A stretch of DNA of 64,000 nucleotides from Tissierella sp. GTDB lineage: Bacteria; Bacillota; Clostridia; Tissierellales; Tissierellaceae. The stretch is taken from the NCBI GenBank assembly GCA_012735585.1, contig JAAYGX010000065.1, positions 68-64,067 on the forward strand, in the 5' to 3' direction. Position 1 is the stretch's first letter; every line of letters begins with the position of its first letter. Shown piece after piece: positions 7,581 to 54,870 of this stretch. The notes under the pieces are model-generated. The model was not told the DNA's origin. It did no database searches and saw nothing but the letters and a program-made list of their open reading frames with translations. The position numbers were made by a program, and so were the translations under genes.

Positions 7581-7725
7581 CTCCTAAAATTTGTAAAAGA
7601 CTATATATATTTATAATACTATACAAATGTACGAAGTCCTTGTTTTTTAAAAAAACAATTTGAATGTTTTTCCAATTATTACCCTAATTATGTCCAGTAG
7701 CAAATGTAGAAAGTAGTTTTCTCAT

Positions 7726-7842: not shown

Positions 7843-7861
7843 AGTTGGACTTTCACTGGCC

Positions 7862-37411: not shown

Positions 37412-38848
37412 ATGGTGATTAGTAAAGATATACAAAAAAATAAATTAAAAATATTAGAGCTTTTTTATAATTCTTCGGATATAGTTATCCGTGATTTTCA
37501 GACATTGTGTAATACTGAGGTAATGGTCTGTTATTTAAATGGATTCATAGACAAAGAAGCTTTAAATGACAATATATTGCAACCATTGATAGAAAACCTA
37601 TTGTCTCCTATGGATATTACAGATACGGTATATATAACTGAAATAAGAGAAATCACAAGCTATCAAGAGGCCATTACTGGAATTATAGAAGGTCATGTGG
37701 CTTTATTTCATGAGGATTTGGATAAGGCATTTATATTAAATCTATGTGATTATGAAAAAAGACCTGTTGAGGTATCAGGGTCAGAACAGGTTATAAGAGG
37801 GCCAAAGGAAGCTTTTATTGAAGATTTGCATGTAAATAAGACTTTAGTAAGAAGAAAGATAAGAAATAATAATTTAGTTTTTGAGGACTTTGTATTGGGG
37901 AAACATACAAATACAATAGTTTCTTTAGTATATGTTAAAGGGATAGTGAATGAGGAAATTTTAGCTGAATTAAAATCAAGAATAAAAGAAATAAAAACAG
38001 ATGCTGTACTGGATAGTAACTATATTGGTGAGTATATAGATGATACTCCAAATAGTTTTGTACCTACTGTATACAATACTGAAAAACCTGATGTCCTAGC
38101 GGGGAAGATACTAGAAGGAAGAATTGGTATTATATGCGATGGTTCGCCTAATGTTTTGACAGTACCCAAGATATTTATTGAGTGTTTGATGACAGCTGAA
38201 GACTATTACTTAAAGCCTATGCATGCTACCTACTTAAGGATCATTAGGGCAATTTGTTTAATTATAAGTGTTACATTAGAAGGGATATATATCGCACTGG
38301 CAAACTTTCATCAAGAGATGATACCTACACCATTGTTGATTTCAATGGCAGGACAGAGAGAGGGTGTTCCTTTAACAAGCTTTTTAGAAGCATTATTTAT
38401 GATAATGTTCTTTGAAATAATGAAGGAAGCGGGACTAAGGCTACCAAAGTCCATTGGTCACACAGTAACTCTTATAGGAGGATTAGTTATAGGTCAAGCA
38501 GCTGTAGATGCAGGGATCATTAGTGCAATCATGATTATAGTTGTATCAGCTACCGGTATTGCAGAATTTGTAAACCCTACTTTAAGGGAACTAATTGTGA
38601 TAAGTAGATTAATACTAATATTTTTTGGCGCTTTTCTTGGAATATATGGTATCGTCTGTGGGCTAATAGTTTTTGTATACTACCTTACAAGTATAAAATC
38701 CTTTGGGGTACCTTATCTATATCCTATAGCACCATATGATAAGAAAGGTATGAAGGACTTCATAATAAGAGCTCCTATTAAAAAAATGAACTGTAGACCT
38801 GAATATATTTCAAATAAGAACTCGAAAAAAAGGAATCGATCATTATGA
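37412..38848 (+). CDS. spore germination receptor A subunit (GerA/GerKA family)
   Basis: 478 aa GerA-family architecture: a soluble N-terminal domain and a C-terminal membrane domain (EQVIRGPKEAFIEDLHVN, GRIGIICDGSP). Confidence 0.9.
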   Translation: MVISKDIQKNKLKILELFYNSSDIVIRDFQTLCNTEVMVCYLNGFIDKEALNDNILQPLIENLLSPMDITDTVYITEIREITSYQEAITGIIEGHVALFHEDLDKAFILNLCDYEKRPVEVSGSEQVIRGPKEAFIEDLHVNKTLVRRKIRNNNLVFEDFVLGKHTNTIVSLVYVKGIVNEEILAELKSRIKEIKTDAVLDSNYIGEYIDDTPNSFVPTVYNTEKPDVLAGKILEGRIGIICDGSPNVLTVPKIFIECLMTAEDYYLKPMHATYLRIIRAICLIISVTLEGIYIALANFHQEMIPTPLLISMAGQREGVPLTSFLEALFMIMFFEIMKEAGLRLPKSIGHTVTLIGGLVIGQAAVDAGIISAIMIIVVSATGIAEFVNPTLRELIVISRLILIFFGAFLGIYGIVCGLIVFVYYLTSIKSFGVPYLYPIAPYDKKGMKDFIIRAPIKKMNCRPEYISNKNSKKRNRSL

Positions 38849-40065
38849 GATTTAAGAAGAAAATTATAATCCTTAATATTCTAGTTGTGACAGTATTATT
38901 AACTTCCTGTACTGGACTTCGAGAAGTAAATGATTTGGGTATTGTAACGACAACGGCTATAGATATGGATAATGGAGAGATTCTTCTTACCCATGAAGTT
39001 ATAGTGCCAGAATCCAATACATCCATTAGTACTGGAAGAGGTAATAATGTGGTCTATGTTCAAAGTAAAGGAAAAACCGTATTTGATGCCATTAGAAATG
39101 CAACTTTAATATTTGATAGAAAATTATTTTTAGCTCATAATAGAATATTCATATTAGGAGAAGAGTTTGCAAAGCAAGGCATTGGTGATTCTTTTAATTT
39201 TTATGTTTATGATAATGAACCAAGGGAGTCTGCTTATATTGTTGTGGCCAAGGACGCTAAAGGATATGATGTAATGGGTATCAATGGAGGATTAAGTGAT
39301 TCGCCTGGCAAATATCTTTTTGACATTATAGAAAATTATCAACTAAATTTAAAGTCAAGAGATTTTTCCTTAGTTGAGTTTTTAAGATACTATCTAAAAG
39401 ACGCGAATCCAGTAACGGCTGTAGTGGAGCATATTCAACAAAGAGAGATAAACAAAGAAGAAAGTCAATCAATTAAGGATAGCTTAAATGTTGTAGGTGG
39501 TGCAGCGTTTAAGGGGGATAGATTGATTGGATATTTTGATAGCGATGAAATGAAAGGGTTTAATTTTATTATAGATGAGTTTAAAAATGGCTTAATAGTA
39601 TTTGAAACACCGGATGAGCTAATGGAAGAATCAGAATTAATTGCAGATAGTGGAATATACACAGTGGTTGAAGTAAAAGATAGTTCAACTAAAAATAGAA
39701 TAGAAATAATTGATGAGGAGCTTCATTTAAAAATTGATGTAGATATAAAGGGAGTATTAATAGAAGATATGAAAGGATTAGAGGTTTCTAATAAGGATAT
39801 TCTCCATAGTGTAGAGTCATCCTGTTCAAATCAGGTGAAAAATCATATCCGTATGGCTATGGAGAAAGCACAGAAAGAATTTAAAACAGATTCATTCAGT
39901 ATAGGAAATCTAGTTCACATTAGATATCCCGATTTGTGGAGAGAGATTTCTGGTGATTGGGAAAGTGTATTTTCAGATTTAGAGTATACTGTCAATGTGA
40001 AAACGGACTTGGTGAGAACTGGGTTATTAAATGTTCCTATAAATATAAAAAAGGAGTTAAAATAG
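38845..40065 (+). CDS. spore germination receptor C subunit lipoprotein (Ger(x)C family)
   Basis: Signal peptide with lipobox LLTSC. GerC-family length and sequence style. The start overlaps the stop of the A subunit. Confidence 0.88.
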   Translation: MRFKKKIIILNILVVTVLLTSCTGLREVNDLGIVTTTAIDMDNGEILLTHEVIVPESNTSISTGRGNNVVYVQSKGKTVFDAIRNATLIFDRKLFLAHNRIFILGEEFAKQGIGDSFNFYVYDNEPRESAYIVVAKDAKGYDVMGINGGLSDSPGKYLFDIIENYQLNLKSRDFSLVEFLRYYLKDANPVTAVVEHIQQREINKEESQSIKDSLNVVGGAAFKGDRLIGYFDSDEMKGFNFIIDEFKNGLIVFETPDELMEESELIADSGIYTVVEVKDSSTKNRIEIIDEELHLKIDVDIKGVLIEDMKGLEVSNKDILHSVESSCSNQVKNHIRMAMEKAQKEFKTDSFSIGNLVHIRYPDLWREISGDWESVFSDLEYTVNVKTDLVRTGLLNVPINIKKELK

Positions 40066-40066
40066 A

Positions 40067-41182
40067 TTGAAAGAATGTATCACTTCAAAACAGATGGTAG
40101 CCTTAATTACACTAACAAGATTATCCACTGGTTTGTCAATAATGCCTACGATAGATATTCGTCCATATAATCAAGATATATGGATCATGATATTGGTTTC
40201 AATTATATATACCACGGCACTTATGACACCTTTACTTTTTTTGGCTAATAAATTTAGAAGTTCAACGATGATTGGATATTTCCAGATAATTTATGGGAAA
40301 TCCATAGGTAAAGTATTGGGATTTTTTTATGGTCTATATTTTCTTATTAATTCATTTAACACTGCTACCATTCAATCAGAGCTAATAGGTTCATCCATAC
40401 TTACAGACACGTCAGAAAGTTTAATAGTTATTGCCATGATGTTAACATGTATATATTGTGTGTCGAGGGGTACTATATCTGGTTTAAGGTCAGTAGAGGT
40501 ATTAGCACCTGTATCTTTAACTATAGTTATTATTTTGATGATGCTTGGTGTAAATAATTTTAAATATTATCTATTATTACCCATAATGGCGGATTCAACT
40601 ATATTAGATATCAATTTAGGGGCTATGGAATTATCAACATATTTTTCGGAGGTATTCTTTTTAACTATGTTTATACCATACTTAGAAAACAAGGATGATA
40701 TAAACAAGATCTTGGTAAAATCGGCGATATATTCCTTAGGCTTGTTAACAATTATTGTAATCATCTGTCAAATTATCTTTGGAGTTGAATATTTAAAACA
40801 CTCTAACTTTCCATTTTTAATTTATGCTAGATCCATAGATATATTCGATATAGTTGAAAGAATAGATTCGGTGGCAGTTGTTGCATGGTTGATAACTAGT
40901 ATATACAGAGTAAGTTCATTTTTGTTAATAAGTGTAGCAGCTTTTAGGGAAATATTTAATAAAAATAAAGATGAGAAAATCATACTACTGGTATTGGGCT
41001 TGATTTTAAGTTCAACAACCCTATATGCAGTAAATACCAGATCAGTTATAATTTCAAGAGGAGATATATTATTCCTTAAAAATATATTATTTGTTTTCTT
41101 TGTTGTAATAATTCCTTTGATTTCATGTATCGTCTATTTTATTAGAAGAAAATCTATTGAAGGTAAAGGCTCATACAATTAG
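40067..41182 (+). CDS. spore germination receptor B subunit (GerAB/APC-like permease)
   Basis: 371 aa, about 10 TM segments, N-terminus ITSKQMVALITLTRLSTG typical of GerB-type proteins. TTG start 1 nt after the gerC stop. Confidence 0.85.
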   Translation: MKECITSKQMVALITLTRLSTGLSIMPTIDIRPYNQDIWIMILVSIIYTTALMTPLLFLANKFRSSTMIGYFQIIYGKSIGKVLGFFYGLYFLINSFNTATIQSELIGSSILTDTSESLIVIAMMLTCIYCVSRGTISGLRSVEVLAPVSLTIVIILMMLGVNNFKYYLLLPIMADSTILDINLGAMELSTYFSEVFFLTMFIPYLENKDDINKILVKSAIYSLGLLTIIVIICQIIFGVEYLKHSNFPFLIYARSIDIFDIVERIDSVAVVAWLITSIYRVSSFLLISVAAFREIFNKNKDEKIILLVLGLILSSTTLYAVNTRSVIISRGDILFLKNILFVFFVVIIPLISCIVYFIRRKSIEGKGSYN

Positions 41183-41524: not shown

Positions 41525-41554
41525 TTTACAAGATCAATACTTTTATGTTATACT
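41525..41554 (+). promoter_or_regulatory. promoter of the riboswitch-controlled operon
   Basis: TTTACA (41525-41530), 18 nt spacer, TGtTATACT extended -10 (41546-41554). Confidence 0.55.
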
Positions 41555-41594
41555 AATATAGATGAATTATACTCTAAAAATTATGAATTGAATA

Positions 41595-41767
41595 TCGCTG
41601 AATTCTAATAAGAAGCGGGGGAACCAATAAATCGGGGTGAATCCTATTACATAATAGGATGGGCTATTTTACCCTTTGGCCCTAATCCGACAGCTAACCT
41701 CGTAGGCGAAAAAAAGGGGAGTTAAATGTACTGAAAACAGACTATGGAACTCCATGGTTATTTTTTT
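41595..41767 (+). promoter_or_regulatory. c-di-AMP riboswitch (ydaO-yuaA class) with intrinsic terminator
   Basis: Hallmark blocks are present in order: closing helix TCGCT(41595-41599)/GGCGA(41705-41709), GCGGGGGAACCA, TCGGGGTGAATC, CCGACAGCTAACCTCGTAGGCG and AAGGGGAG. The terminator is ACTATGG-AACT-CCATGGT (41741-41758) plus TATTTTTTT. This matches my memory of the crystallised Thermoanaerobacter ydaO aptamer (..GGAGGAACC..GGGGUUAAUC..CCCGACAGCUAACUCCGGAGGCAAUAAAGGAAGGAG). Confidence 0.85.
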
Positions 41768-41826
41768 ACCCCAAATTTTGGTTTACATAATATATAGAGT
41801 AAATATTATTTGGAGAGGATGATATT

Positions 41827-42954
41827 ATGAAAAGAGAACTAACATATTGTGTAATAGGCGCTGGTAACGGTGGTGTTGCTATGGCGGGATATCTATCCAT
41901 GAACGGTTACAAAGTCAATCTATATAATAGGACTTTGGAGAAGATTTTACCTTTAATTAAAGAACCGATTATTCATTTGACAGGTGAAGAAAATGGATTT
42001 GGAGTCTTAAATAAAGTTACAAGTCATATCGGAGAAGCTATAGAAGATGTGGATATAATCATGGTAACAACACCCGCATTGGCCCATTATAACATTGCTA
42101 AGGAAATGGCCCCTTATTTAAAAGATGGTCAAATCATAGTATTAAATCCTGGGAGAACCGGCGGAGCTTTAGAAGTATATGAAACTTTATTAAAGACGAG
42201 AAAGAGAAACAATATAATTGTAGCTGAGGCACAGACATTTATATATGCAGCAAGATCGACTTCAATAAATAATGCTCATATATTTAAGTCAAAGAAAGAA
42301 GTATCCTTAGCGGCAATACCAGCAACAAAAACTGACTACGTAGTAGAACTTATCAACGAGGCATATCCTCAGTTTGTACCAGCAAAAGATGTTCTTGAAA
42401 CAAGCATCAACAACTATGGTGCAATATTTCATCCGGCACCGACCCTACTAAACAGTGGACACATAGAAAGATGTTCACCATTTGAATATTATATAGAAGG
42501 TATCACACCATCAATAGGAAATTTTTTAGAAAAAATGGATAGAGAAAGAATGGAACTAGGAAGATTACTTCAAGTAGATGCTATATCTGCTACTGACTGG
42601 CTATATGATAGCTATGGAGCAAAGGGAGATAGTATTTATGAAGCAATACAAAACAATCCTGGATACAGAGGTTTACAAGCGCCACAAGGCCTTTACAACA
42701 GGTATATTTATGAAGATGTACCTTGTAGTTTAGTTCCAATGGAATCTATGGCTGCTCTTTTTGGAATGAAAACTCCTGCCATATCATCAATGATAGATAT
42801 TGCTCAGATCATGACAAATAGGGACTTTAGAAGTGAAGGAAGAAGTGCTGAAAGATTAGGACTAGATGGATTATCTATAGCAGAAATGCATCTTCTAGCA
42901 AGAAAAGGTACAATTGTTAAAAGGAGATTTGATCGTTTTGACGAAGTGGTTTAA
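41827..42954 (+). CDS. NAD(P)-dependent opine (octopine/nopaline) dehydrogenase-family protein
   Basis: 375 aa with an N-terminal Rossmann motif (CVIGAGNGGVAMAGYL). Overall length and C-terminal helical-domain style match the opine dehydrogenase family. Confidence 0.8.
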   Translation: MKRELTYCVIGAGNGGVAMAGYLSMNGYKVNLYNRTLEKILPLIKEPIIHLTGEENGFGVLNKVTSHIGEAIEDVDIIMVTTPALAHYNIAKEMAPYLKDGQIIVLNPGRTGGALEVYETLLKTRKRNNIIVAEAQTFIYAARSTSINNAHIFKSKKEVSLAAIPATKTDYVVELINEAYPQFVPAKDVLETSINNYGAIFHPAPTLLNSGHIERCSPFEYYIEGITPSIGNFLEKMDRERMELGRLLQVDAISATDWLYDSYGAKGDSIYEAIQNNPGYRGLQAPQGLYNRYIYEDVPCSLVPMESMAALFGMKTPAISSMIDIAQIMTNRDFRSEGRSAERLGLDGLSIAEMHLLARKGTIVKRRFDRFDEVV

Positions 42955-43068
42955 TATAAATACGAATGAAGTTGGCTAAAAAAATTTCCCTATTTAGCCA
43001 ACTATCTTACATAATTAATAATACTGTGGGTATAGGATAATTATATTAAACTTAAAGGGAGTGTTTTG

Positions 43069-44331
43069 ATGAGTATAACCTTTGAACAAATGTCAAAGAT
43101 GAGAAGAGAGTTTCATCAAATTGCAGAGCCAGGTTGGCTAGAGTTTCAAACAACTATAAGGATAATAAATTACCTAAAATCCTATGGGTACGAAGATTTG
43201 GCATATGGAAGGGCAATACATGGAGAAAGAGTGGGGTTGCCGACTAAAAGCAAAATACAAGAGTATAAAAATAGTCTTTCTTTAGATGCGGATTATGATA
43301 TATCGGAAATCCTTGAAGGATATACTGGTGTAGTGGCAAGGCTTGATACTGGCAAAGAAGGGCCAACGATTGCTATGCGTTTTGATATTGATGCAAACGA
43401 TGTTGGGGAAACCCAGGATCAAGGACATATACCCAATAAAGAAGGATTTAGATCGAAAAATGACTTTGCTATGCATGCATGTGGTCATGACGGACATATA
43501 ACCATAGGGCTAACTATAGCAAAATGGCTAATTGATGAAAAAGAGAATTTAAAGGGCAAGTTTATAATAGTATTCCAACCTGCGGAAGAAGGCGTTCGTG
43601 GGGCTAAGAGTATGGTAGAGGCAGGAGTACTTGATGGTGCGGATTACTTTTTAGCAGGCCATATAGGACTTGGGGTGGAAAGTGGTGTACTAGGTCTTGG
43701 TACTGTAGGATTTTTAGCTACATCAAAACTTGATGTATATTTTGAAGGGGTTTCATCCCATGCAGGTGCGGCACCGGAATTGGGAAAAAATGCATTATTA
43801 GCAGCGGCTTCTTGTGCTTTAAATCTTCATACTTTGACTCAATTTGCTTCAGGTATGACTAGACTGAATGTAGGAACTTTAAATGCAGGTTCGGGAAGAA
43901 ATGTAGTTCCAGCAAATGCAATGATGCAAATCGAGACTAGAGGGGAAAATGAAGAGGTAAATGAAGCTTTAAGAAAGAAAGTAAACAAGGTAATTGAAGG
44001 CACAGCCAAGACCTTTGATGTTGAGCACAGGGTGGTTGAAGCAGGTAGTGCACCAGCATACAATACTTATGATAAAGAATTTGTAGGTAAGGTATCACAA
44101 TATTTAAAAGAAAATGGTTTTATAATCGACATAGCCAGATCTCTAGGTGGATCTGAAGATGTGACATATATGATGAATGAAGTAGAGAATAATGGTGGGA
44201 AAGCCCTTCATTTTATGTATGGCACTACACTAGCTGCAGCTCATCATAATAACAAATTTGACTATGAAGAAGAAACTTTGGAAATGGCATTGAACGCCCT
44301 TAAAAAGACGGTTGAATTGTTGTTAAAATAA
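43069..44331 (+). CDS. M20-family amidohydrolase/peptidase (AbgA-like)
   Basis: About 420 aa with metal-ligand regions (MHACGHDGH, FQPAEEGVRGA). ATG 43069 lies 7 nt after GGGAG. Confidence 0.85.
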   Translation: MSITFEQMSKMRREFHQIAEPGWLEFQTTIRIINYLKSYGYEDLAYGRAIHGERVGLPTKSKIQEYKNSLSLDADYDISEILEGYTGVVARLDTGKEGPTIAMRFDIDANDVGETQDQGHIPNKEGFRSKNDFAMHACGHDGHITIGLTIAKWLIDEKENLKGKFIIVFQPAEEGVRGAKSMVEAGVLDGADYFLAGHIGLGVESGVLGLGTVGFLATSKLDVYFEGVSSHAGAAPELGKNALLAAASCALNLHTLTQFASGMTRLNVGTLNAGSGRNVVPANAMMQIETRGENEEVNEALRKKVNKVIEGTAKTFDVEHRVVEAGSAPAYNTYDKEFVGKVSQYLKENGFIIDIARSLGGSEDVTYMMNEVENNGGKALHFMYGTTLAAAHHNNKFDYEEETLEMALNALKKTVELLLK

Positions 44332-44351
44332 TAAATCATATATAAATAAAA

Positions 44352-44392
44352 AGGACTATTTCCATTTTTGGAATAGTCCTTAAGTATTTTTA
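44352..44392 (+). terminator. rho-independent terminator
   Basis: AGGACTATTTCCA tttt TGGAATAGTCCT, followed by T-rich sequence. Confidence 0.75.
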
Positions 44393-44464
44393 TGTCATCC
44401 TGAGCTTTTGCGAAGGATCTCATGTTACCAATATCCAGGATCCTTCGCCTTGCTCAGGATGACA
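44393..44464. repeat. nested-palindrome intergenic repeat, copy 3 (best preserved)
   Basis: TGTCATCCTGAGCTTTTGCGAAGGATC tcatgttaccaatatccag GATCCTTCGCCTTGCTCAGGATGACA. 13-bp outer and 10-bp inner stems. Lies between convergent genes. Confidence 0.85.
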
Positions 44465-44475
44465 AAATGAAATGT

Positions 44476-45663
44476 TTATTCATTTAAGAAATCTATTGCA
44501 CCTGATACTAATGTTTTTATTCCTACTGGTATGCACCCTTCATCTACGACTAAATTTGGATTGTGAACAGTAGTTTTACCTTTATTCATTTCTGATTCCA
44601 TACCTAGCCAATAGAATACAGATGGTACAAGTTTGGTAAATTCAGAGAAGTCCTCTCCACCTGAAGCGGGTTGGCTTGGGATCACAACATTTTGCTCTCC
44701 AATTGCATCCTTAAAATATCCGATAAATTTAGTAGCCAATTCTTCATCATTTACAGTTGCAGAATATCCCTCAACATATTCCACATCACACTCTGCTCCC
44801 AAAGCCATAGCCACATTTTCTGCAATAGCCTTAATTCTAGTAGGCATTATAGCGGAGATTTCAGGATTAAATGTTCGAACTGTCCCTTCTAGAACCACCT
44901 TATCACAAGTAACATTATACCTACTTCCACCGTGTATAGTGCCTATGGTAACAACGGCACTTTCCATAGGATCTACATTTCTGCTTATAACTGTTTGAAG
45001 AGCGGTTATTATATGACCTGCAGTAACAATTGCATCTACACCGTTGTGGGGTTGGGATGCGTGGGATGATTTACCCTTTACAGTTATAAATATTCTATCG
45101 GATTGGGCCATCATAGTAGAAGTTCTTATACCTACTTTACCCAGTGGAAGATTCCATACATGAAGTGCTACAGCTGCATCTACCTTAGGGTTTTCAAGAA
45201 CTCCATCTTCTATCATATATCTTGCTCCACCAGTGGGATTGGCCTCTTCTGCTGGTTGGAAAACAAATTTTATATTGCCTTTGATTTCATCCTTAAGCTC
45301 TGATAATACCTTGGCGGCTCCTAAAAGTATTGCAGTGTGGACATCATGACCACAGGCATGCATCATACCAGGTACTTTTGATTTAAAAGGTAAATCAGTA
45401 AGCTCATCCATTGGCAGGCAGTCCATATCTGCTCTTAGAAGTATAGTTTTACCAGGTTTTTTACCTCTTAATAGGCCAACTACACCCATTTTTCCTATTT
45501 TATCTTGAACCTCAAGACCTAGTTTTTCTAACTGGGCCTTTACTAAAGCTGATGTTCTTACTTCTTCCATACCTATTTCAGGGTATTGGTGTATATCTCT
45601 TCTGATTTCAATAATATCATTTAAATATTTTTCGATTAACGTATCTAAGTTATTTGTCACCAC
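44476..45663 (-). CDS. M20D-family amidohydrolase (N-acyl-amino-acid / hippurate hydrolase-like)
   Basis: 395 aa: IRRDIHQYPEIGMEE, MHACGHDVHTA, FQPAEE. GTG start after GAGGAGG. Confidence 0.88.
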   Translation of the reverse strand: MVTNNLDTLIEKYLNDIIEIRRDIHQYPEIGMEEVRTSALVKAQLEKLGLEVQDKIGKMGVVGLLRGKKPGKTILLRADMDCLPMDELTDLPFKSKVPGMMHACGHDVHTAILLGAAKVLSELKDEIKGNIKFVFQPAEEANPTGGARYMIEDGVLENPKVDAAVALHVWNLPLGKVGIRTSTMMAQSDRIFITVKGKSSHASQPHNGVDAIVTAGHIITALQTVISRNVDPMESAVVTIGTIHGGSRYNVTCDKVVLEGTVRTFNPEISAIMPTRIKAIAENVAMALGAECDVEYVEGYSATVNDEELATKFIGYFKDAIGEQNVVIPSQPASGGEDFSEFTKLVPSVFYWLGMESEMNKGKTTVHNPNLVVDEGCIPVGIKTLVSGAIDFLNE

Positions 45664-45675
45664 GCGTCCTCCTCG

Positions 45676-45728
45676 TTAAAAAGAATAGGAAAGTTCTATT
45701 CTTAAAATTAAATAGTATAGAACTTTCC
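45676..45728 (-). terminator. terminator or attenuator between abgT-like and M20 genes
   Basis: On the minus strand, GGAAAGTTCTAT ... ATAGAACTTTCC forms a 12-bp stem followed by TATTCTTTTT. Confidence 0.6.
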
Positions 45729-45762
45729 ATAAGTTTTAAATTTACTTCAATAGAAGCTTTTC

Positions 45763-47277
45763 TTACATAAATATAAATCCACCAGGTCCTAATGGCCATC
45801 CAGTAAAGTACCAAATAAATCCTAGTATTATCCATGCTATCAATATAACTGCTGAATAAGGAATCATTAATGATAATAGTGTACCTACTCCTGCTTCCTC
45901 ATCGTATTCATTCATATATGCAAGAATAATTGGGAAATAAGTGAACAATGGAGAAATAATATTAGTTGATGAATCCCCCATTCTGTATAAGAACTGTGTC
46001 CATGCAGGGTGATAATTTAATAGTGCAAACATAGGTACAAATATAGGTGCGAGTAAAGCCCATTTTGCTGAACCGGACCCTATAAATAGGTTTACAAATG
46101 CGCAAAGCAATATATAACCAATGAAAAGACCAGGTCCTGTAAAACCAATGTCGCTTAAAACATTGGAACCTCCAATTGCTAAAACCTGACCAAGATTTGT
46201 CCAGTTAAAGTAGGATATAAACTGTCCAATTATAAATGCTAATACTATAAATCCTGACATCGTATTTGTAGCTTTTGTCATTAATTTTGGAATATCAGCT
46301 GATGACTTTATTTTACCAAGTTTTATAGCATATGGTATGGATGATACAAGGAATAATATTAAAAGAATTGGAATTATACCAGACATAAATGGTGAACCTG
46401 TTAATATTTCTCCAGTTTCAGGATGCCTTAAAAAACTATTCTTAGGAACTAAAGCTATAACCAATAATACAACATAGATTAAAGTAGCTATACCAGATGC
46501 CCTAAGTCCGGCATTTTCCTCAGGAGTCAATTCTTGAGCTTTTATTTGTTTGTTGCCGGTATATTTACCTAGTTTTGGCTCTAAATATCTTTCTGACATA
46601 ATACTAATTACGAATGCTAATATAAAAGTAGATACTATCATTATATACCAGTTTGCCATCAATGGTATTTCAGGAGCTCCTACAATAGCAGAAGCTTCAT
46701 TTGTAATACCCTGTAATAAAGCATCAGTACCAGCAGGCAAAAGGTTGGCACTAAACCCACCTGTAGTTGCTGCATAACCTATAGCAATACCTGCAATAGG
46801 ATTACGGCCCAAGGACATAAATATCATGGCAGCTAATGGTGGTATAATAACTATTGCAGCATCGGAAGCGATATTTCCACAAATACCAATTAAAGCTATA
46901 ACAAATGTTACTACTCTAGTTGGAGCGCCAAGCATTGTCTTTCTCATTAGGGATGACATAAATCCAACCTCTTCGGCTAGACCAAGTCCCAATGTCATAG
47001 TAAGTATTAATCCCAATGGTGCAAATCCAGTAAAATTGCGAACCATACTAGTCAGGGCATGATTGATACCCTCGCCAGATAGAAGATTCTTAACCGCAAC
47101 TTCTTCACTGGTTGTCGGATTTATAGCACTAACATTCAATAAATTTAAAACAAATGATAATACTGCAACTATAACTATTAACCATAAAAATAGAATAAAA
47201 GGATGAGGGATTTTATTACCTACCCTTTCAACCCATGCTAAAAATCCTTTGTTTTCAGCTTTTTCATTATTTGACAT
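45763..47277 (-). CDS. AbgT-family transporter (aminobenzoyl-glutamate / dipeptide transporter family)
   Basis: 504 aa polytopic protein with an AbgT-type N-terminus (GFLAWVERVGNKIPHPFILF). Confidence 0.88.
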   Translation of the reverse strand: MSNNEKAENKGFLAWVERVGNKIPHPFILFLWLIVIVAVLSFVLNLLNVSAINPTTSEEVAVKNLLSGEGINHALTSMVRNFTGFAPLGLILTMTLGLGLAEEVGFMSSLMRKTMLGAPTRVVTFVIALIGICGNIASDAAIVIIPPLAAMIFMSLGRNPIAGIAIGYAATTGGFSANLLPAGTDALLQGITNEASAIVGAPEIPLMANWYIMIVSTFILAFVISIMSERYLEPKLGKYTGNKQIKAQELTPEENAGLRASGIATLIYVVLLVIALVPKNSFLRHPETGEILTGSPFMSGIIPILLILFLVSSIPYAIKLGKIKSSADIPKLMTKATNTMSGFIVLAFIIGQFISYFNWTNLGQVLAIGGSNVLSDIGFTGPGLFIGYILLCAFVNLFIGSGSAKWALLAPIFVPMFALLNYHPAWTQFLYRMGDSSTNIISPLFTYFPIILAYMNEYDEEAGVGTLLSLMIPYSAVILIAWIILGFIWYFTGWPLGPGGFIFM

Positions 47278-48262: not shown

Positions 48263-49189
48263 ATGAAAATGCATAGAAGATTTAGATTTTTAATTATATT
48301 ACTTATTATAGGAGTTACAACTATAGGTTCAATAAGTATAATGAAATGGCTAGACAAGCCAGACCTTGATCCTGTAGACATTACTTCTGATATTGAAGAA
48401 GAGGAGCCTGATATAGAGGTAGAGGCTGGGGTTTTTAAACATACTATAGATAATCTTAATCTAAGAACCGGACCTGGAACGGATCAAGAAGTTATATTTA
48501 CCATTCCTAAAGGGGAAAAGGTAGAGGTACTAGGCCATGATAATGGATGGGACAGAATTATATATAATAATGTAACTGGGTATTCTTCTTCAGAGTACCT
48601 ATCTGATTTTGTGGAAGATACTAATAATAATGATGATGATTTGGAAATTATAGTATCGCCTGAGACCATGAAGGTAGTGAAAGGGATTTTGTTGGTAAAT
48701 AAGGAGTATGCACTACCTATGGGCTATGATCCTGGAGAGGATCCTGAGGCAAGAGAGTATCTAGATAAGATGTTTGCGGCTCATTTTGAAGAAACGGGAA
48801 ATAGCTTGACTGCCTACTCTGGCTATAGGACCTATGAATATCAAAAAGGTCTTTTTAATAGGTATGTGGAGAAAGATGGATATGATAATGCTCTTATGTA
48901 TTCAGCCAAACCTAGGCACTCAGAGCACGAATCAGGCTTAGCTTATGATATAGGTGGCAGTGATCAATCATATTGGCTAGAAGAGGAATTTGAGGACACA
49001 GAAGAGGGTATATGGCTTAGGGATAATGCCCATAGATTTGGATTTATTCTAAGGTATCCAAAAGGTAAGACCCATATTACTGGTTATATCTATGAACCAT
49101 GGCATTTTAGGTATGTTGGAATTGGACATGCTACAAATATTTATGAAGAAGATATTACTTTGGAAGAATATCTACTGGAAGATATATAA
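48263..49189 (+). CDS. secreted or membrane-anchored SH3b-domain D-alanyl-D-alanine carboxypeptidase (M15B/VanY family)
   Basis: N-terminal TM anchor, an SH3b-like segment (LNLRTGPGTDQEVIFTIPKGEKVEVL) and a VanY-type zinc motif (SEHESGLAYD ... EPWHFRYVG). Confidence 0.85.
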   Translation: MKMHRRFRFLIILLIIGVTTIGSISIMKWLDKPDLDPVDITSDIEEEEPDIEVEAGVFKHTIDNLNLRTGPGTDQEVIFTIPKGEKVEVLGHDNGWDRIIYNNVTGYSSSEYLSDFVEDTNNNDDDLEIIVSPETMKVVKGILLVNKEYALPMGYDPGEDPEAREYLDKMFAAHFEETGNSLTAYSGYRTYEYQKGLFNRYVEKDGYDNALMYSAKPRHSEHESGLAYDIGGSDQSYWLEEEFEDTEEGIWLRDNAHRFGFILRYPKGKTHITGYIYEPWHFRYVGIGHATNIYEEDITLEEYLLEDI

Positions 49190-49231
49190 AGCTTTTTTAA
49201 TAATATTGAAATTATGGTATTTTTATGTTAA

Positions 49232-49293
49232 AGTATATATATAGTGGGTATAGTAACCCTAACACACAATATATTGTTGGTTTGTGTTAGGGT
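49232..49293 (+). promoter_or_regulatory. pair of NrdR boxes, overlapping a 12-bp-stem hairpin
   Basis: Box 1 is AGTATATATATAGTGG (49232-49247). Box 2 is ACACAATATATTGTTG (49264-49279). Their centres are 32 bp apart, and both resemble the acaCwAtATaTwGtgt NrdR consensus. The inverted repeat AACCCTAACACA (49255-49266) / TGTGTTAGGGTT (49282-49293) encloses box 2. Confidence 0.6.
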
Positions 49294-49320
49294 TTTATTA
49301 ATTTTATAGGAGGCAGATCC

Positions 49321-51459
49321 ATGTTGAAAGTCGAGAAACGTAATGGAAGTATTGTGGACTTTGAAAATGATAAGATAGAAATAGCCATTGGAAAAGCTAT
49401 GAAAGAAACAGAAAAAGGTCTAGACGAGGCTTTAGCCAAAGAAATAGCTGGGCTTATAAGTGAAGAATTCAAAGATATAGAAGTCGTTCATATTGAACAG
49501 ATCCAAGATGCAGTAGAGGTTCATTTGATGAAACATCGTCCTGATGTAGCTAGAAAATATATTATATATAGGGAAGAAAGAGCCAGACTTAGAGAACAAG
49601 GCTGGGATATGACGGATTTACAAAGGGATATCTATGAGAAAAAATATAGATATAATTATGAGAGTTTTGATGAATTTCTTAATAGGGTAAGTGGTGGCAA
49701 TAGTCCTATAAAAAAGGCTATTAAAGATAAAAAATTCATGCCAGCTGGAAGGATATTAGCTGGAAGGGGTTTAGATAAATTCGGTAGAAAAATTACCCTT
49801 AGTAATTGTTATGTAATGCCTAAGGTTGAAGACAATATAGAAGCAATTTTCGATACTGCAAAGTACTTGGCTAGGACTTATTCCTATGGTGGTGGTTGTG
49901 GTCTTACCCTATCTAAATTAAGACCTAAAGGGGCTAAAGTAAACAACGCCGCAAATACTACAACAGGTGCAGTTTCATTTATGGACTTGTATTCTCTTGT
50001 TACAGGTTTAATAGGTATGAAGGGACGTAGAGGGGCCCTGATGCTTAATTTAGATGTAAATCATCCTGATATAGAAGAGTTTATCAATGTTAAAAATGAT
50101 TTATCAAAAGTGAACTATGCCAATATTTCTGTTAATATAGATGATGAGTTTATGGTTGCAGTTAAAAATGATACAGAATATGATTTACATTTTACTGTAG
50201 AATCCACAGGAGAAGAAATAAGAAGAACTATTAAAGCAAGAAATCTTTTCAGAACATTAGCTAAAAACAATTGGAATATGGCAGAACCAGGAATATTATA
50301 CACAGATAAGATCAACACATGGCATCTAATGAGTGAAGATACATCTTTTGAATTTGCTGGCGTAAACCCATGTGCTGAAGAGACTTTACCAGCATTCGGT
50401 AGCTGTAATTTAGCTTCTATGAATTTAAGTGAATTTGTAAAGAATCCATTTACTAAATATGCTAGATTTGAATTTGAGAAATTTGGTGAATTAGTTAGAA
50501 ATGGTGTTATATATCTTAATGAAGTATTAGACGAAAACATGAAGCTACATCCACTTCCACAACAAAGGGAAATGTCAGAAAGTTTAAGACAAATAGGACT
50601 AGGTATCATGGGTGTATCTGATATGTTTATTAAACTAGGTATTAGATATGGAAGTAGTGAGTCTATCAATTTGATTCATCAAATAGGTAGAACTATGGTT
50701 AATGAAGCCCTAAGACAATCAGCATTACTTGCAAAAGAAGACGGTCCGTTCCCAAGATACAATGCAGAAGCTATGCTAAAGTCTCCATTTTTATTAAGCA
50801 ATGCTGATGAAGATGTCTTGAGCCTAATTGAGGAACATGGGCTTAGAAATAGCCAACTATTGACGATACCTCCAACAGGTAGTATATCAACATTGATAGG
50901 ATGTAGTAATGGATTGGAGCCAATATTTCAAATCTCCTATACAAGAAAGTCTGAATCCTTGCATGTAGAAGACACATATTACAAGGTCTTTACACCTATA
51001 ATAAAGGAATATATGGATGAAAATGACATAAGTAGAGAAGAGGATTTACCAGACTTTATTGTAACAACATCCAACCTAGATTATAGAGAAAGAATTGAAG
51101 TACAAGCTGTATGGCAACAATATATAGATGCAAGTATTTCCTCAACAGTAAATGTACCAAATGAATTTACAATAGATGAAGTTGAAGACTTATATATGTA
51201 TGCATGGGAAAAAGGATTAAAAGGTATAACAATCTATAGGGACGGTTGTGCAAGAAGTGGTATTTTAATAACAAATAAATCTAACAATCCTAGTAACAGA
51301 TTAGATCGAATAGATGAATTACAAAATGAATTAAATGAATTGGCAGCAGAACAATTATTAGAAGATCCTAATACTTGTCCAATGTGTGGTGGAGAGTTGA
51401 TCCATTCTGGGGGCTGCTCAGAGTGTCAAGCATGTGGCTATAGCCCTTGTTCAATATAA
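49321..51459 (+). CDS. nrdJ: adenosylcobalamin-dependent (class II) ribonucleotide reductase with N-terminal ATP-cone
   Basis: 712 aa. ATP-cone (VEKRNGSIVDFENDKIEIAI), class II catalytic motifs (GAVSFMDLY, NPCAEE) and a C-terminal Cys-rich tail CPMCGGELIHSGGCSECQACGYSPC. Confidence 0.9.
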   Translation: MLKVEKRNGSIVDFENDKIEIAIGKAMKETEKGLDEALAKEIAGLISEEFKDIEVVHIEQIQDAVEVHLMKHRPDVARKYIIYREERARLREQGWDMTDLQRDIYEKKYRYNYESFDEFLNRVSGGNSPIKKAIKDKKFMPAGRILAGRGLDKFGRKITLSNCYVMPKVEDNIEAIFDTAKYLARTYSYGGGCGLTLSKLRPKGAKVNNAANTTTGAVSFMDLYSLVTGLIGMKGRRGALMLNLDVNHPDIEEFINVKNDLSKVNYANISVNIDDEFMVAVKNDTEYDLHFTVESTGEEIRRTIKARNLFRTLAKNNWNMAEPGILYTDKINTWHLMSEDTSFEFAGVNPCAEETLPAFGSCNLASMNLSEFVKNPFTKYARFEFEKFGELVRNGVIYLNEVLDENMKLHPLPQQREMSESLRQIGLGIMGVSDMFIKLGIRYGSSESINLIHQIGRTMVNEALRQSALLAKEDGPFPRYNAEAMLKSPFLLSNADEDVLSLIEEHGLRNSQLLTIPPTGSISTLIGCSNGLEPIFQISYTRKSESLHVEDTYYKVFTPIIKEYMDENDISREEDLPDFIVTTSNLDYRERIEVQAVWQQYIDASISSTVNVPNEFTIDEVEDLYMYAWEKGLKGITIYRDGCARSGILITNKSNNPSNRLDRIDELQNELNELAAEQLLEDPNTCPMCGGELIHSGGCSECQACGYSPCSI

Positions 51460-51502: not shown

Positions 51503-52681
51503 CTATAACATTGATGAAAGAACATGTACCTTTGATACAATTCCCTTTAAGCTATGGTCCTGATCAACTACAGCTATTGGAAATGGCGTTGATGCAGCAA
51601 TACTCATAATATCAGTCAATAAAGCATCTGGTGATGCAGTATTGATATCTCTAATTAATATATCAGAAATAGTTAAACCTTGTTTATTGGCTTCTAAAGC
51701 ATCATCGATGGTGATTACACCCTGTAATTTCATCTTTTCACCTACGACATAGGCGCTGGATACTCCATTGGATCTCATCGTCTTTATTGCAAAGTTTAGG
51801 CTATCTTTCATACGAACGATACTATTAGGAGTAATCATAACATTCTTCACGTGGATTACCTGAGTTTTATCTGCACTATCTATAAACTGTTTTACATAAT
51901 CATCAGCAGGATTTTCACTCATTTTTTCTGGAGTAGCTACTTGTATAAGTTCTCCATCTTTCATGATAGCAACCCGATCTCCCAATTTAAAAGCTTCATT
52001 GATATCATGGGTTATAAATACAATTGTTTTATCAAGTTTTCTTTGTATAGTTAACAATTCAAACTGCATATCTTTTCTAACCAATGGATCTAAAGCTGAA
52101 AATGGCTCATCCATTAAAAGAATCTCTGGATCATTAGCCAAGGCTCTAGCTATACCAACCCTTTGTTTCATACCACCTGAAAGACTGGTAATTAGTTCAT
52201 TATCATGTCCTTCTAGTCCAACCATATCGATCATTTCTTTAGCTTTAGCTCGTCGTTCTTCCTTTGGTACTCCTTTTACTTCAAGACCATATTCTACATT
52301 CCCTATTACGTTTCTATGTGACATTAGTCCAAATTGCTGAAATACCATTGAAATTTTATTTCTTCTATAGTCATTTAACTTTTCTTTACCAAATTTACCG
52401 ATATCTTCTCCTTCATAGAAAATATTACCTGAAGTTGGCTTATTAAGCATATTAAAACATCTTACCAATGTAGATTTACCTGAACCAGACAAACCTATGA
52501 TAACGAATATTTCGCCCCTTTTAATTTCTAAATTTACATCCCAAAGAGCAACTGTTACTCCAGTTTGTTTATATATAGCATCCTTATCCTTACCTAACTT
52601 TTTTAGTTTAATCGCTTTAGATTTTTCGACACCATAAAGTTTAGATAAATTTTTTATGCTTAATATATTATTATTCTCCAT
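51503..52681 (-). CDS. opuAA: glycine betaine/proline ABC transporter ATPase with C-terminal tandem CBS domains
   Basis: Walker A GLSGSGKST, signature LSGGMKQRVGIARA, and about 120 aa of tandem CBS at the C-terminus. I prefer ATG 52681 (MENNN) after GAGGTGG over the tracked start at 52696. Confidence 0.92.
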   Translation of the reverse strand: MENNNILSIKNLSKLYGVEKSKAIKLKKLGKDKDAIYKQTGVTVALWDVNLEIKRGEIFVIIGLSGSGKSTLVRCFNMLNKPTSGNIFYEGEDIGKFGKEKLNDYRRNKISMVFQQFGLMSHRNVIGNVEYGLEVKGVPKEERRAKAKEMIDMVGLEGHDNELITSLSGGMKQRVGIARALANDPEILLMDEPFSALDPLVRKDMQFELLTIQRKLDKTIVFITHDINEAFKLGDRVAIMKDGELIQVATPEKMSENPADDYVKQFIDSADKTQVIHVKNVMITPNSIVRMKDSLNFAIKTMRSNGVSSAYVVGEKMKLQGVITIDDALEANKQGLTISDILIRDINTASPDALLTDIMSIAASTPFPIAVVDQDHSLKGIVSKVHVLSSML

Positions 52682-53540
52682 CTGATTCCACCTCACTACT
52701 ATGAATTAATCCTTGGGTAATTCTGTCTAATATAATGGCAATAATAACTACTGCAGATCCAGATACCAAGCCCCTGCCCATTTCTACTCTATTTACAGCA
52801 ATTAAGACTTCCATACCTAGGCCTGAGGCACCTATCATTGATGTGGTAACCACCATTGACATTGCCATCATCAGTGTTTGGTTCACTCCTGTCATTATTG
52901 TTGGTAGGGCTTGTGGAATTTGTACTTTTACCAAGGATTGTATTTTAGTGGATCCAAATGCTAAGGATGCTTCCACAACTTCCTTATTGATTTGTCTAAT
53001 TCCATGATTGGTAAGTCGTATCATTGGAACTATGGCATATACTGTTGTAGCAATAACTGCTGGTGGTTTACCTAGCCCAAAGAATACCATTGCTGGAATT
53101 AGATAAACAAATACAGGCATAGTCTGCATAGTATCTAAAATTGGGCGCATGATACGATCCACTCTATCACTTGTAGATAAAAGTATTCCAATAGGGAAAC
53201 CCAATACCAATGAAATAATTACAGATGCAATGATTATGGATAATGTTTCAATCATTAAACTCCATAGACCAACAGCACCAATTAAAGATAGGAGAGCACC
53301 ATATAATATTCCTTTTCTAATCTTTCTAGATACTTTCCAAGAGATTACCACTACTAGAAGAACCAATACAGACCATGGTATAAAATCTAGTAATTCATTA
53401 ATTGAAGTAACTAAGTTTTGTAAAAAACCTTTTATTATACTAAAGAAAGCATCAAATTTAATACTCCAACCTGTAACAGTCGAATCAATAGCCTTATAAT
53501 TTATAGATATTTTAAAGGGAAAATCATATAACCAATCCAT
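52671..53540 (-). CDS. opuAB: glycine betaine ABC transporter permease
   Basis: 289 aa ProW/OpuAB-type permease with an EAA-like loop (EASLAFGSTKIQSLVKVQIP). Confidence 0.9.
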   Translation of the reverse strand: MDWLYDFPFKISINYKAIDSTVTGWSIKFDAFFSIIKGFLQNLVTSINELLDFIPWSVLVLLVVVISWKVSRKIRKGILYGALLSLIGAVGLWSLMIETLSIIIASVIISLVLGFPIGILLSTSDRVDRIMRPILDTMQTMPVFVYLIPAMVFFGLGKPPAVIATTVYAIVPMIRLTNHGIRQINKEVVEASLAFGSTKIQSLVKVQIPQALPTIMTGVNQTLMMAMSMVVTTSMIGASGLGMEVLIAVNRVEMGRGLVSGSAVVIIAIILDRITQGLIHSSEVESDGE

Positions 53541-53551
53541 TTTATTTCCCC

Positions 53552-54565
53552 CTATTTATTTAAAAAGTCTTTCATTGCTTGAGCATCTTCTGACTCTAAC
53601 CACTGATCTAATAATTCACTGTGTTCTGATAAGAACCATTTAGCTGTCTCCACATAGTCAGCTCCTGTTTCTTGCATATGAGCAAGTCCTTCTGAAGTTA
53701 ATGCACTTGATGTTTCATAATTACTTAAGAAAGCTATAAATTCCTCATTTCCTTGTTCTTCAAAATTGTTACTTACTGCAATGGTTACATTCACTGCAGG
53801 TAATGCTGATGCACCTTCTAAATAATTATCAGGGTTATGAGGTTCATCATCTAATAAAACCATATCATACATACCCAATAACCAAGTTGGCTCCCAGTAA
53901 TATGCAGCGATAGGCTCTCCTCTTTCATATGCTGATGTTATAGCAGTAGCTAATGCAGCATCTGAACCAGGTCTAAAATAATTGAAATTTTCGTCTAATC
54001 CATAATGCATAAATTTATTGTGTAATATTTGATCTACTTCCCAGCCTGGTATAGCACCATACATTCTACCCATACCTGGATTTTCATCATCTGGGAATAC
54101 ATCAGGATGGTCCTTTAACTCCCAAATATATTGTAAATCTGGGGCACTAGCTTCTATACCTCTTTCTTCGTCACCTTCTATTACATATCTAGGAACATAT
54201 ACTCCTTGGAAATTGTCATCAAAATTTGTACTTAATTCATGCAATTTTCCTGCTGCTAAGTCTTCTTCATAAGGTGGAATATTGTCAGTCCAAACTTCCA
54301 TATGAGCGTCAATTTCGCCAGAAATTATACCTTGGTGTGTTACAGGAGTTGATCCGCTAACTTCGCTCCATGAGTAACCCCAAAGTTCCTGTGCAATTGT
54401 TCCAGCAACAGCATTGTGGAATCTAATACTATCCCATCCAGCATCGGCGAATTTGATTTCTACACCAGCATAAGGGCCATCGCCTGTTGAATCGCCACCT
54501 GCACATCCTACCAAAATCAATGAAATAATTCCTACTAGCACTATAATACTTGTTAACTTCTTCAT
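53552..54565 (-). CDS. opuAC: glycine betaine-binding lipoprotein
   Basis: Lipobox LVGCAGG. ProX/OpuAC-type aromatic-rich sequence. Start chosen at MKKL (54565); the tracked start is 54577. Confidence 0.88.
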   Translation of the reverse strand: MKKLTSIIVLVGIISLILVGCAGGDSTGDGPYAGVEIKFADAGWDSIRFHNAVAGTIAQELWGYSWSEVSGSTPVTHQGIISGEIDAHMEVWTDNIPPYEEDLAAGKLHELSTNFDDNFQGVYVPRYVIEGDEERGIEASAPDLQYIWELKDHPDVFPDDENPGMGRMYGAIPGWEVDQILHNKFMHYGLDENFNYFRPGSDAALATAITSAYERGEPIAAYYWEPTWLLGMYDMVLLDDEPHNPDNYLEGASALPAVNVTIAVSNNFEEQGNEEFIAFLSNYETSSALTSEGLAHMQETGADYVETAKWFLSEHSELLDQWLESEDAQAMKDFLNK

Positions 54566-54671
54566 TTTTAACACCATCCTTTAATATTTAGTACTTTTAC
54601 TAAATGAAAAGCATCAATTGTAAAATCACAACATATTCAAGGAGCACACATTTTTAATACTAAAAAAATAC

Positions 54672-54836
54672 AAAAAAACTATGGAGTTCCATAGTCTAAT
54701 TATTAGCACAATATGACTCCCCTTAAAGCGCTTACGAGGTTAGCTGACGGGTTAGGACTAAAGGGTAGCCCTTCGAAAATTTGATTCACCCCAGTTAATT
54801 GGTTCCCCCGCTTCTTAAATTAAGAACTCAGCGACG
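54672..54836 (-). promoter_or_regulatory. c-di-AMP riboswitch (ydaO-yuaA class) with intrinsic terminator, leader of opuA
   Basis: The minus strand reads TCGCTGAGTTC..AAGAAGCGGGGGAACCAATTAACTGGGGTGAATC..CCTAACCCGTCAGCTAACCTCGTAAGCG..AAGGGGAGT. It is followed by ACTATGG-AACT-CCATAGT and a T-run (plus-strand coordinates 54672-54695). Confidence 0.85.
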
Positions 54837-54870
54837 CAATTCATTTGTTCTTTGAAGTTTTAACATTTTA

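Follow-up and report, generated by a model that had tools for sequence, protein, structure and literature searches.

A c-di-AMP riboswitch precedes an opine dehydrogenase gene in Tissierella and related clostridia

In a 64,000-nucleotide (nt) stretch of DNA from Tissierella sp. (contig JAAYGX010000065.1, positions 68 to 64,067, G+C content 33.7%; hereafter the window), the evidence supports a cyclic di-AMP (c-di-AMP) riboswitch with a terminator-type expression platform at 41586-41723. The gene directly downstream, at 41827-42954, is assigned by its sequence to the NAD(P)H-dependent opine dehydrogenases (ODHs). Riboswitch and ODH gene make up a conserved unit, found in approximately 50 loci of several clostridial lineages. 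The riboswitch is an ordinary representative of the RF00379 family, and the enzyme appears to extend the mODH subclass, which was defined only recently; the novelty lies in their association and, behind it, in an uncharacterised cassette of ODH and a B12 mutase-like protein. As described in PMC7266159, c-di-AMP riboswitches govern transporters for K+ and amino acids together with osmoprotectant systems and enzymes of the cell wall, whereas the controlled gene here encodes an opine dehydrogenase, followed in relatives by the B12 mutase-like gene. The riboswitch, its alternative pairings, the enzyme family, the key residues, and their conservation were established by computation. As a joint explanation we lean, with some reserve, towards an OFF switch that controls an ODH acting on acidic amino acids, the product being an anionic N-(1-carboxyethyl)-amino acid with an osmotic role. 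The elements of the unit, all on the + strand, are as follows.

41525-41554, + strand: sigma-70-type promoter with the -35 element TTTACA (41525-41530), an 18-nt spacer, and the extended -10 element TGtTATACT (41546-41554); consensus scan.
41586-41723, + strand: c-di-AMP (ydaO-class) riboswitch aptamer; RF00379, the R1 model, and covariation of helices and pseudoknot.
41718-41729, + strand: anti-terminator strand, the 3' tail GGAGTTAAATGT; alternative fold, duplex energies, and covariation.
41740-41768, + strand: intrinsic terminator, a GACTATGG-AACT-CCATGGTT stem-loop (41740-41759) followed by ATTTTTTT; terminator scan.
41769-41826, + strand: leader between terminator and start codon, with the ribosome-binding site GGAGAGG (41812-41818).
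41827-42954, + strand: opine dehydrogenase of 375 amino acids (aa), mODH-like subclass; PF02317, PDB 1BG6, and key residues.

A preliminary description of the window, made from the sequence alone, had recognised a ydaO-class aptamer by its hallmark blocks and assigned it to the c-di-AMP riboswitches. The Rfam covariance model agrees: RF00379 matches 41586-41723 (+) with 107.4 bits (gathering score 38, E 1.3e-24) over model positions 1-134 of 134, i.e. the full length, and R1, a covariance model built in the present analysis, gives 128 bits. Fifty-five homologous aptamers were aligned to our own covariance model; in this alignment, which is fitted to the model and thereby favours the structure, standard pairs fill 97.4% of the cells, and both sides change in 15 of 29 pairs. 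None of 500 shuffles attained these pairing and covariation values, and slid controls paired at no more than 57%. The pseudoknot joins the loop CCCTTT (41672-41677) to the 3' tail AAAGGG (41713-41718). It covaries between clades, being CCCTTT:AAAGGG in the window and CTCTTC:GAAGAG, CCTCTTC:GAAGAGG, or CCTG:CAGG in others. Because the registers of loop and tail differ by one column between clades, the pseudoknot was evaluated by duplex energies of each sequence; own pairs averaged -7.45 kcal/mol and cross pairs -6.4 kcal/mol, and none of 500 permutations attained the observed mean, in a test that, like the one for the anti-terminator below, takes no account of shared ancestry. The class assignment thus rests on the RF00379 score, the 15 covarying pairs, and the covarying pseudoknot. 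The window RNA resembles the leader of Bacillus subtilis kimA (ydaO) in having all helices, the pseudoknot, and a terminator-type OFF platform.

Behind the aptamer, the canonical terminator of the preliminary description was found as a hairpin with a U-tract, though a rather weak one, the stem-loop energy being about -8.5 kcal/mol; the minimum-free-energy structure of the leader contains it. In related loci, 44 of 54 + strand aptamers are followed by a homologous hairpin that has CTATGG-N(2-7)-CCATRG as its core and a T-rich tail. The aptamer tail GGAGTTAAATGT is complementary to positions 41742-41753, in the 5' arm, the loop, and the first CC of the 3' arm of the terminator, and the alternative anti-terminator fold of the leader has an energy of -11.4 kcal/mol. 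As duplexes, anti-terminator and terminator of the window are about isoenergetic (-8.4 and -8.5 kcal/mol), whereas thermophilic relatives have an almost perfect anti-terminator 12-mer of -12 to -16 kcal/mol against -10.8 kcal/mol for the terminator. Paired with its own terminator target, the tail averages -10.2, compared with -7.9 for permuted pairs, and 0 of 500 permutations attained the observed value. Compensatory changes occur in three related loci, namely GGGC/GCCC in L007 and GGGG/CCCC in L006 and L031. Terminator and covarying anti-terminator pairing together constitute the expression platform that would couple the aptamer to the gene.

The terminator hairpin CTATGGA(N)CTCCATRG (window 41742-41757) keeps almost the same sequence from Tissierellia to Thermosediminibacter, although protein identity is only about 60%. 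The likely reason for this near-invariant core is a double constraint, as it has to base-pair with the aptamer tail as well as with its own 3' arm.

Upstream of the aptamer, the promoter that had been described as TTTACA-18-TGtTATACT is present. It has 10 of 12 consensus matches plus the TG of the extended -10 element, and both the -35 and the TGnTATAAT element keep their position in 11 loci of related Tissierellia. As a whole, this AT-rich region shows no excess of promoter-like sites (30 seen and 31.8 expected from shuffled sequence). Downstream of the terminator, the near-palindrome CCCCAAATTTTGG (41769-41781), followed by TTTACATAAT (41782-41791), is conserved in most Tissierellia relatives, and a promoter-like match, TTTACA-16-TATTAT at 41782-41809, overlaps this conserved block. 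The block at 41769-41809 may be an operator or a second promoter. The locus L006:200-355, from a metagenome-assembled genome (MAG) of Proteiniborus, has a degenerate leader: the 5' part of the aptamer is replaced and gives no model match, and the last approximately 25 nt, the GGGG/CCCC tail, and the same CTATGG-type terminator hairpin are retained. Such a leader would result from decay of a riboswitch or from faulty assembly.

The window contains a second c-di-AMP riboswitch at 54714-54843 (-), with 94.9 bits in the Rfam scan. It precedes an OpuA-type ABC transporter (51503-54577, -) consisting of an OpuAC binding protein, a permease, and a CBS-domain ATPase, a classical target of the RF00379 class. 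The organism therefore uses the c-di-AMP regulon for osmoprotection.

The gene behind the first riboswitch had been described as octopine/nopaline-dehydrogenase-like from its GAGNGG motif, which lies at residues 11-16 and marks a Rossmann fold. Profile and structure matches point the same way. Pfam Octopine_DH (PF02317) matches residues 186-329 with 154.1 bits (cut-off 30, E 3.7e-45), and the best relative of solved structure is N-(1-D-carboxyethyl)-L-norvaline dehydrogenase of Arthrobacter sp. 1C (ArODH/CENDH, PDB 1BG6), which is colinear over residues 4-353 (E 4.8e-81). Scallop octopine dehydrogenase (OcDH, 3C7A) matches more weakly (E 1.6e-12). With H202, D297, and R292 of ArODH and H212, D329, and R324 of OcDH as references, the catalytic H202, R292, and D297 of the window enzyme align with both structures, and their numbering is identical to that of ArODH. 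R110, G198, H202, and R292 occur in 102 of 102 ODH homologues and D297 in 101 of 102. The window protein has an identical counterpart in a MAG of Tissierella sp.

The substrate prediction comes from a comparison with six metagenomic opine dehydrogenases (mODHs) from hot springs, characterised in 2024 by Telek et al. (PMC10787698). The mODHs, 45-80% identical to one another, favour acidic L-amino acids (conversions reached 100% with L-Asp and exceeded 50% with L-Glu) and pyruvate as the oxo acid, and NADPH generally gives better conversions than NADH. Two positions set their amino-acid specificity: A111 and N198 of ArODH are Arg and Gly in the mODHs, and a double swap at both positions exchanges the specificity for Phe and Asp in ArODH and mODH-582, in both directions. 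The window enzyme is 42-44% identical to mODH-44, -45, -47, and -48 and 38% identical to ArODH, the mODH identities being slight underestimates as those sequences were machine-read from a PDF with errors. It shares with the mODHs the R110/G198 pair, the N-R-T/S NADPH-type motif, and the His/Asp dyad. ArODH differs in having A111 and N198 (for hydrophobic amino acids) and D34/D36 (for NADH), that is D-I-D where the window ODH has N34-R35-T36; the specificity motifs are NPGRTGG and NNYGAIFHP in the window ODH and NPGATGG and TNVNAVMHP in ArODH. Given R110 and G198, the window ODH is predicted to condense pyruvate with an acidic L-amino acid (Asp, Glu, or a close analogue such as 3-methylaspartate), and Ala or Gly would not be expected. 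The high Km of mODH-582 for aspartate (24.8 mM, PMC10787698) suggests that the true substrate is a relative of aspartate.

A product of the alanopine/strombine type, as the preliminary description had proposed, is hard to reconcile with this pocket, and 3C7A was the only match of the invertebrate type; on these two grounds an identity as alanopine or strombine dehydrogenase was dropped, with no alanopine or strombine dehydrogenase sequence compared directly. In the available text of the mODH report (PMC10787698), these enzymes are characterised as biocatalysts and no physiological role was found; the riboswitch offers a physiological setting for a subclass hitherto studied, as far as that text goes, for biocatalysis.

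How widely the pairing is conserved was assessed in 108 related loci, 28 from assemblies taken as one genome per species and 80 from metagenomes, scanned with the Rfam model or our own. Sorted by identity of the ODH, they read as follows.

ODH identity of at least 60%: 50 loci, 45 with full aptamers and 3 with aptamers cut by the contig start; L028 is not assessable, and L006 retains only the aptamer 3' end and the terminator.
ODH identity of 52-59%: 3 loci, 3 with an aptamer.
ODH identity of 46-51%: 55 loci, 4 with an aptamer, 49 assessable and without one, and 2 with less than 300 nt upstream.

An aptamer is thus present in 48 of the 49 assessable loci at 60% identity or more, compared with 4 of 53 at 46-51%. 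Hosts of aptamer-bearing loci include Tissierellia, Proteiniborus, Tepidanaerobacter, Thermosediminibacter, Fervidicola, Thermovorax, and Thermoanaerobacterales; aptamer-free ODH loci cover a G+C range of 33-69%. Within one large clade of clostridia, the ODH therefore belongs stably to the c-di-AMP riboswitch regulon; elsewhere it is not controlled in this manner. Standalone riboswitch-ODH units also occur (L004, L029, L030, L032, and L034). In a MAG of Tepidanaerobacteraceae, a variant of the c-di-GMP-I-GGC riboswitch (L023:1355-1438, RF03167, 74 bits) lies 3.5 kb upstream of the riboswitch-ODH unit.

The preliminary description did not know opine dehydrogenases as members of this regulon, and the literature is in keeping with that. 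Searches linking opine dehydrogenase or octopine with ydaO, c-di-AMP, or riboswitch returned nothing relevant, although the gene lists of the primary regulon surveys (Nelson 2013, Block 2010) lay outside the search and a supplementary mention is possible. Methylaspartate in connection with c-di-AMP, and B12 or ATP-grasp in connection with opine dehydrogenase, likewise yielded nothing relevant in the searches, and nothing was found on carboxyethyl-aspartate as a compatible solute. The pairing adds a biosynthetic enzyme family to a regulon so far described as transporters and wall enzymes.

In 78 of the 108 related loci, including L005-L007 and L009-L028, the ODH gene adjoins an open reading frame (ORF) of approximately 548 aa (e.g. 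L016:5395-7041) that encodes a fused, B12-binding, glutamate-mutase-like protein; in riboswitch-bearing genome loci this ORF abuts or overlaps the stop codon of the ODH. The N-terminal B12-binding domain has the cobalt-ligand His, and the C-terminus weakly matches methylaspartate mutase E (PF06368, E 6e-5). In the PDB, searches by sequence retrieved the B12 domain only, whether the single protein or a profile was used. The AlphaFold model (pLDDT 81) has its best match in GlmE (6h9e_B, E 2.8e-15, target-normalised TM-score 0.67), with lysine and ornithine aminomutases ranking after it. Glutamate mutase consists of two subunits, GlmS and GlmE, whereas the partner fuses both in one chain and has Cys for the Asp of the DxHxxG motif. 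An alternative assignment as a PLP-dependent aminomutase was rejected, since the PLP-lysine loop of ornithine aminomutase (OraE) is absent and the fold is nearest to GlmE. At least 120 clusters share the protein at 71% identity or more, and its sole annotation is 'cobalamin B12-binding domain-containing protein'; the pair with ODH is widespread and uncharacterised, spanning G+C contents of 33-69%. It occurs in either gene order and, in distant loci, mostly without a riboswitch, which argues that ODH and mutase form a functional module by themselves.

Further genes recur beside this pair. A Ddl-like ATP-grasp ligase gene directly follows the mutase gene in L005 and lies between riboswitch and ODH in L094 and L095 (order: riboswitch, ATP-grasp, ODH, mutase); an AsnB-like amidotransferase gene follows the mutase in L052 and other loci, and a TldD/PmbA pair stands beside the cassette in one lineage. 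A search of the 64-kb window by tblastn found no mutase-like, ATP-grasp, AsnB-like, or TldD gene. In a neighbour-joining tree, the window clade is nested inside the mutase-linked Tissierellia, so the loss of the mutase from the operon is derived. These recurring neighbours suggest, at the level of gene content, that a biosynthetic role of the ODH is the more plausible one. A functional analogy, by enzyme type only, exists with the N-acetylglutaminylglutamine amide (NAGGN, asnO-ngg) pathway, in which an amino-acid-derived solute is made by an ATP-grasp ligase and an AsnB-type amidotransferase, both of which types recur beside the ODH-mutase pair; the NAGGN pathway has neither an opine dehydrogenase nor a B12 enzyme, and its extra gene types do not occur in the window.

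Three related loci show further arrangements. L012 carries two c-di-AMP riboswitches on the same strand with 2.3 kb between them: one (2232-2388) stands before an AsnB-like glutamine amidotransferase gene, the other (4704-4872) before the ODH-mutase operon. Beside the ODH cluster of L064 lies a GlmL equivalog (7319-8716; methylaspartate mutase accessory protein, 596 bits, cut-off 475). At the 5' end of L096, a partial gene (-) of the same BLAST cluster as the GlmL of L064 stands next to a mutase-ODH pair.

We infer the ligand response, substrate, reaction direction, and osmotic role as follows. Transcription from the conserved sigma-70-type promoter would run through the c-di-AMP riboswitch. 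With c-di-AMP bound, the 3' tail of the aptamer would be kept in the pseudoknot, and with the tail sequestered the hairpin at 41740-41759 and its U-tract would terminate transcription and leave the gene off. At low c-di-AMP, the tail at 41718-41729 would pair with the 5' arm and loop of the terminator and permit read-through into 41827-42954. The ODH would then reductively condense pyruvate with an acidic L-amino acid to an N-(1-carboxyethyl)-amino acid that bears three carboxylates and would remain free or, in relatives, be ligated or amidated further. This product would act as an organic anion or osmolyte, or as a precursor of one, made alongside the uptake of K+ and compatible solutes when c-di-AMP falls. 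In most relatives the operon goes on into the mutase-like gene and sometimes then into the ATP-grasp ligase or AsnB-like amidotransferase gene; such mutase-containing operons may lead from glutamate through 3-methylaspartate to its N-(carboxyethyl) opine, and the window lineage has lost the mutase from the operon. Of this chain of steps, read-through at low c-di-AMP into the gene of an NAD(P)H-dependent enzyme that joins pyruvate to an acidic amino acid is regarded as well supported. An osmotic or ion-balance role is proposed because the signal is shared with the uptake of K+ and osmoprotectants, including the OpuA operon 12 kb away, and because the linked enzymes are biosynthetic in type.

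A wider version of this proposal is more tentative, and we would sooner doubt it than rely on it. Low c-di-AMP might turn on a new class of solute, an N-(1-carboxyethyl) acidic amino acid derived in most lineages from 3-methylaspartate (made from glutamate by the fused B12 mutase), sometimes extended or amidated by the ATP-grasp ligase or amidotransferase, and serving anaerobic Firmicutes as a K+ counter-ion or compatible solute; the window, with riboswitch and ODH, would be its minimal form. Should the product indeed be an osmolyte or K+ counter-ion, anaerobes would possess a new route of adaptation to osmotic change.

Several observations weigh against an osmotic OFF switch of this kind. The terminator of the window is rather weak (7-8 bp, -8.5 kcal/mol), the anti-terminator overlaps the pseudoknot strand by only 1-2 nt (G residues), and the conserved block at 41769-41809 could permit expression independent of the riboswitch. 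Approximately 49 homologous ODH loci, mostly ODH-mutase pairs, are without a riboswitch; thus, the pathway is not intrinsically osmotic. Neither an exporter nor another accessory gene of osmolyte type is linked to the ODH. Lastly, the substrate is predicted from mODHs with which the window enzyme has only 42-44% identity and whose aspartate kinetics are poor (Km 24.8 mM).

Among the other explanations, the one that fares best, although we consider it unlikely, is a valve for redox or metabolite pools: the ODH would be a terminal fermentative dehydrogenase that disposes of pyruvate and reducing equivalents or trims Asp and Glu pools under c-di-AMP control, and its product would be no osmolyte. 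Invertebrate alanopine and octopine dehydrogenases act as terminal fermentative dehydrogenases, c-di-AMP regulates pyruvate carboxylase and the aspartate and glutamate pools in Listeria and Lactococcus, and the hosts of the unit are anaerobic amino-acid fermenters (Tissierellia, Tepidanaerobacter). However, the recurrent linkage to B12 mutase-like, ATP-grasp, and AsnB-like genes would be left unexplained, and the NADPH-type signature N34-R35-T36 would be unusual in a fermentative sink, even though the reaction does use up pyruvate and NAD(P)H, as described for mODHs (PMC10787698).

The preliminary description had placed the ODH in one operon with the M20 amidohydrolase gene downstream, the amidohydrolase supplying or recycling the amino-acid moiety. 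The features concerned are the following.

43069-44331, + strand: M20a, an amidohydrolase of the M20D family; Pfam Peptidase_M20 and M20_dimer, TIGR01891 265 bits.
42970-43003, + strand: hairpin with an 11-bp stem and no U-tract in the spacer between ODH and M20a; spacer fold, conserved in L001.
44351-44381, + strand: strong terminator with a 12-bp stem that ends the M20a transcript between the convergent M20a and M20b; terminator scan.

The next gene is indeed an M20 amidohydrolase. Together with M20b (-) and an AbgT-family transporter gene (-), M20a (+) makes up an abgA/abgB/abgT-like block at 43069-47277 of the window. The transporter matches PF03806 with 592 bits and NF008459 with 486 bits (cut-off 864); M20a and M20b match only the broad TIGR01891 family, with no AbgA or AbgB model among the matches listed.

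As an operon with a common function, in which a peptide or N-acyl amino acid would be taken up and cleaved by AbgT and M20b, the arrangement has little probability. M20D enzymes release C-terminal amino acids, which would suit a supply of Glu or Asp, and the order riboswitch-ODH-M20a-M20b-AbgT recurs in L008 despite different flanking genes. Still, only 5 of 109 loci (the window, L001, L002, L003, and L008) have M20a behind the ODH, always with M20b and AbgT. L004, L029, and L030, whose ODHs are 85% identical and preceded by the same ger genes, keep riboswitch and ODH without the block; L004 shares the downstream GNAT, VanY, and ribonucleotide reductase genes of the window, and the gene order of L029 and L030 matches. 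The absence of all three genes amid shared flanks indicates that the block was gained or lost as a unit, and the tree places the arrangement as derived within mutase-linked lineages. The spacer varies: it is only 40-44 nt and hairpin-free in L002 and L003, contains a hairpin of 11-13 bp without U-tract in the window and L001, and holds a strong terminator in L008. The hairpin of the window may be a weak terminator or an mRNA-stabilising element. Co-transcription of M20a by read-through is possible in some genomes, but M20a lies outside the conserved unit and was dropped as an operon partner. M20a, M20b, and AbgT are best regarded, from their gene content, as a separate abg-like block for peptide uptake and hydrolysis.

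A similarly low probability is given to a building block for the cell envelope or specialised metabolism, i.e. a modified amino acid or pseudo-peptide for the wall, or an opine-type metal chelator, and no bulk solute. c-di-AMP riboswitches often control cell-wall genes (PMC7266159), and opine dehydrogenases complete staphylopine-type metallophores (PMC10787698); the linked ligase is Ddl-like, and in one lineage the cassette is accompanied by TldD/PmbA pairs. On the other hand, no CntL/CntK-type, Mur-type, or export genes lie beside the ODH in the window or related loci, riboswitch-ODH units also occur standalone, and a metallophore would be expected under the control of a metal regulator. The specific candidate of a staphylopine-type ODH (CntM) was rejected for want of CntL/CntK or other Cnt linkage: the neighbours in the window are gerA-type, M20, AbgT, GNAT, and VanY genes, and related loci have mutase, ATP-grasp, and AsnB-like genes instead of CntL/CntK.

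Very unlikely is a catabolic use, in which the enzyme would oxidise an imported N-(carboxyalkyl)-amino acid to pyruvate and an amino acid: opine dehydrogenases are reversible, ArODH came from a bacterium growing on compounds of the N-(carboxyalkyl)-amino-acid type, and an AbgT importer is nearby, but this importer is encoded on the other strand and is not retained with the ODH in relatives, control by an OFF switch that answers to an osmotic second messenger would be odd for a catabolic gene, and the NADPH-type signature and biosynthetic neighbours favour synthesis.

The wider surroundings of the unit comprise a gerA/gerC/gerB-type spore germination operon (37412-41182, +) directly upstream of the riboswitch promoter, which indicates that the organism is a spore-former. 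Downstream, 48263-51459 (+) encodes an SH3-VanY/LdcB-like carboxypeptidase and an ATP-cone ribonucleotide reductase.

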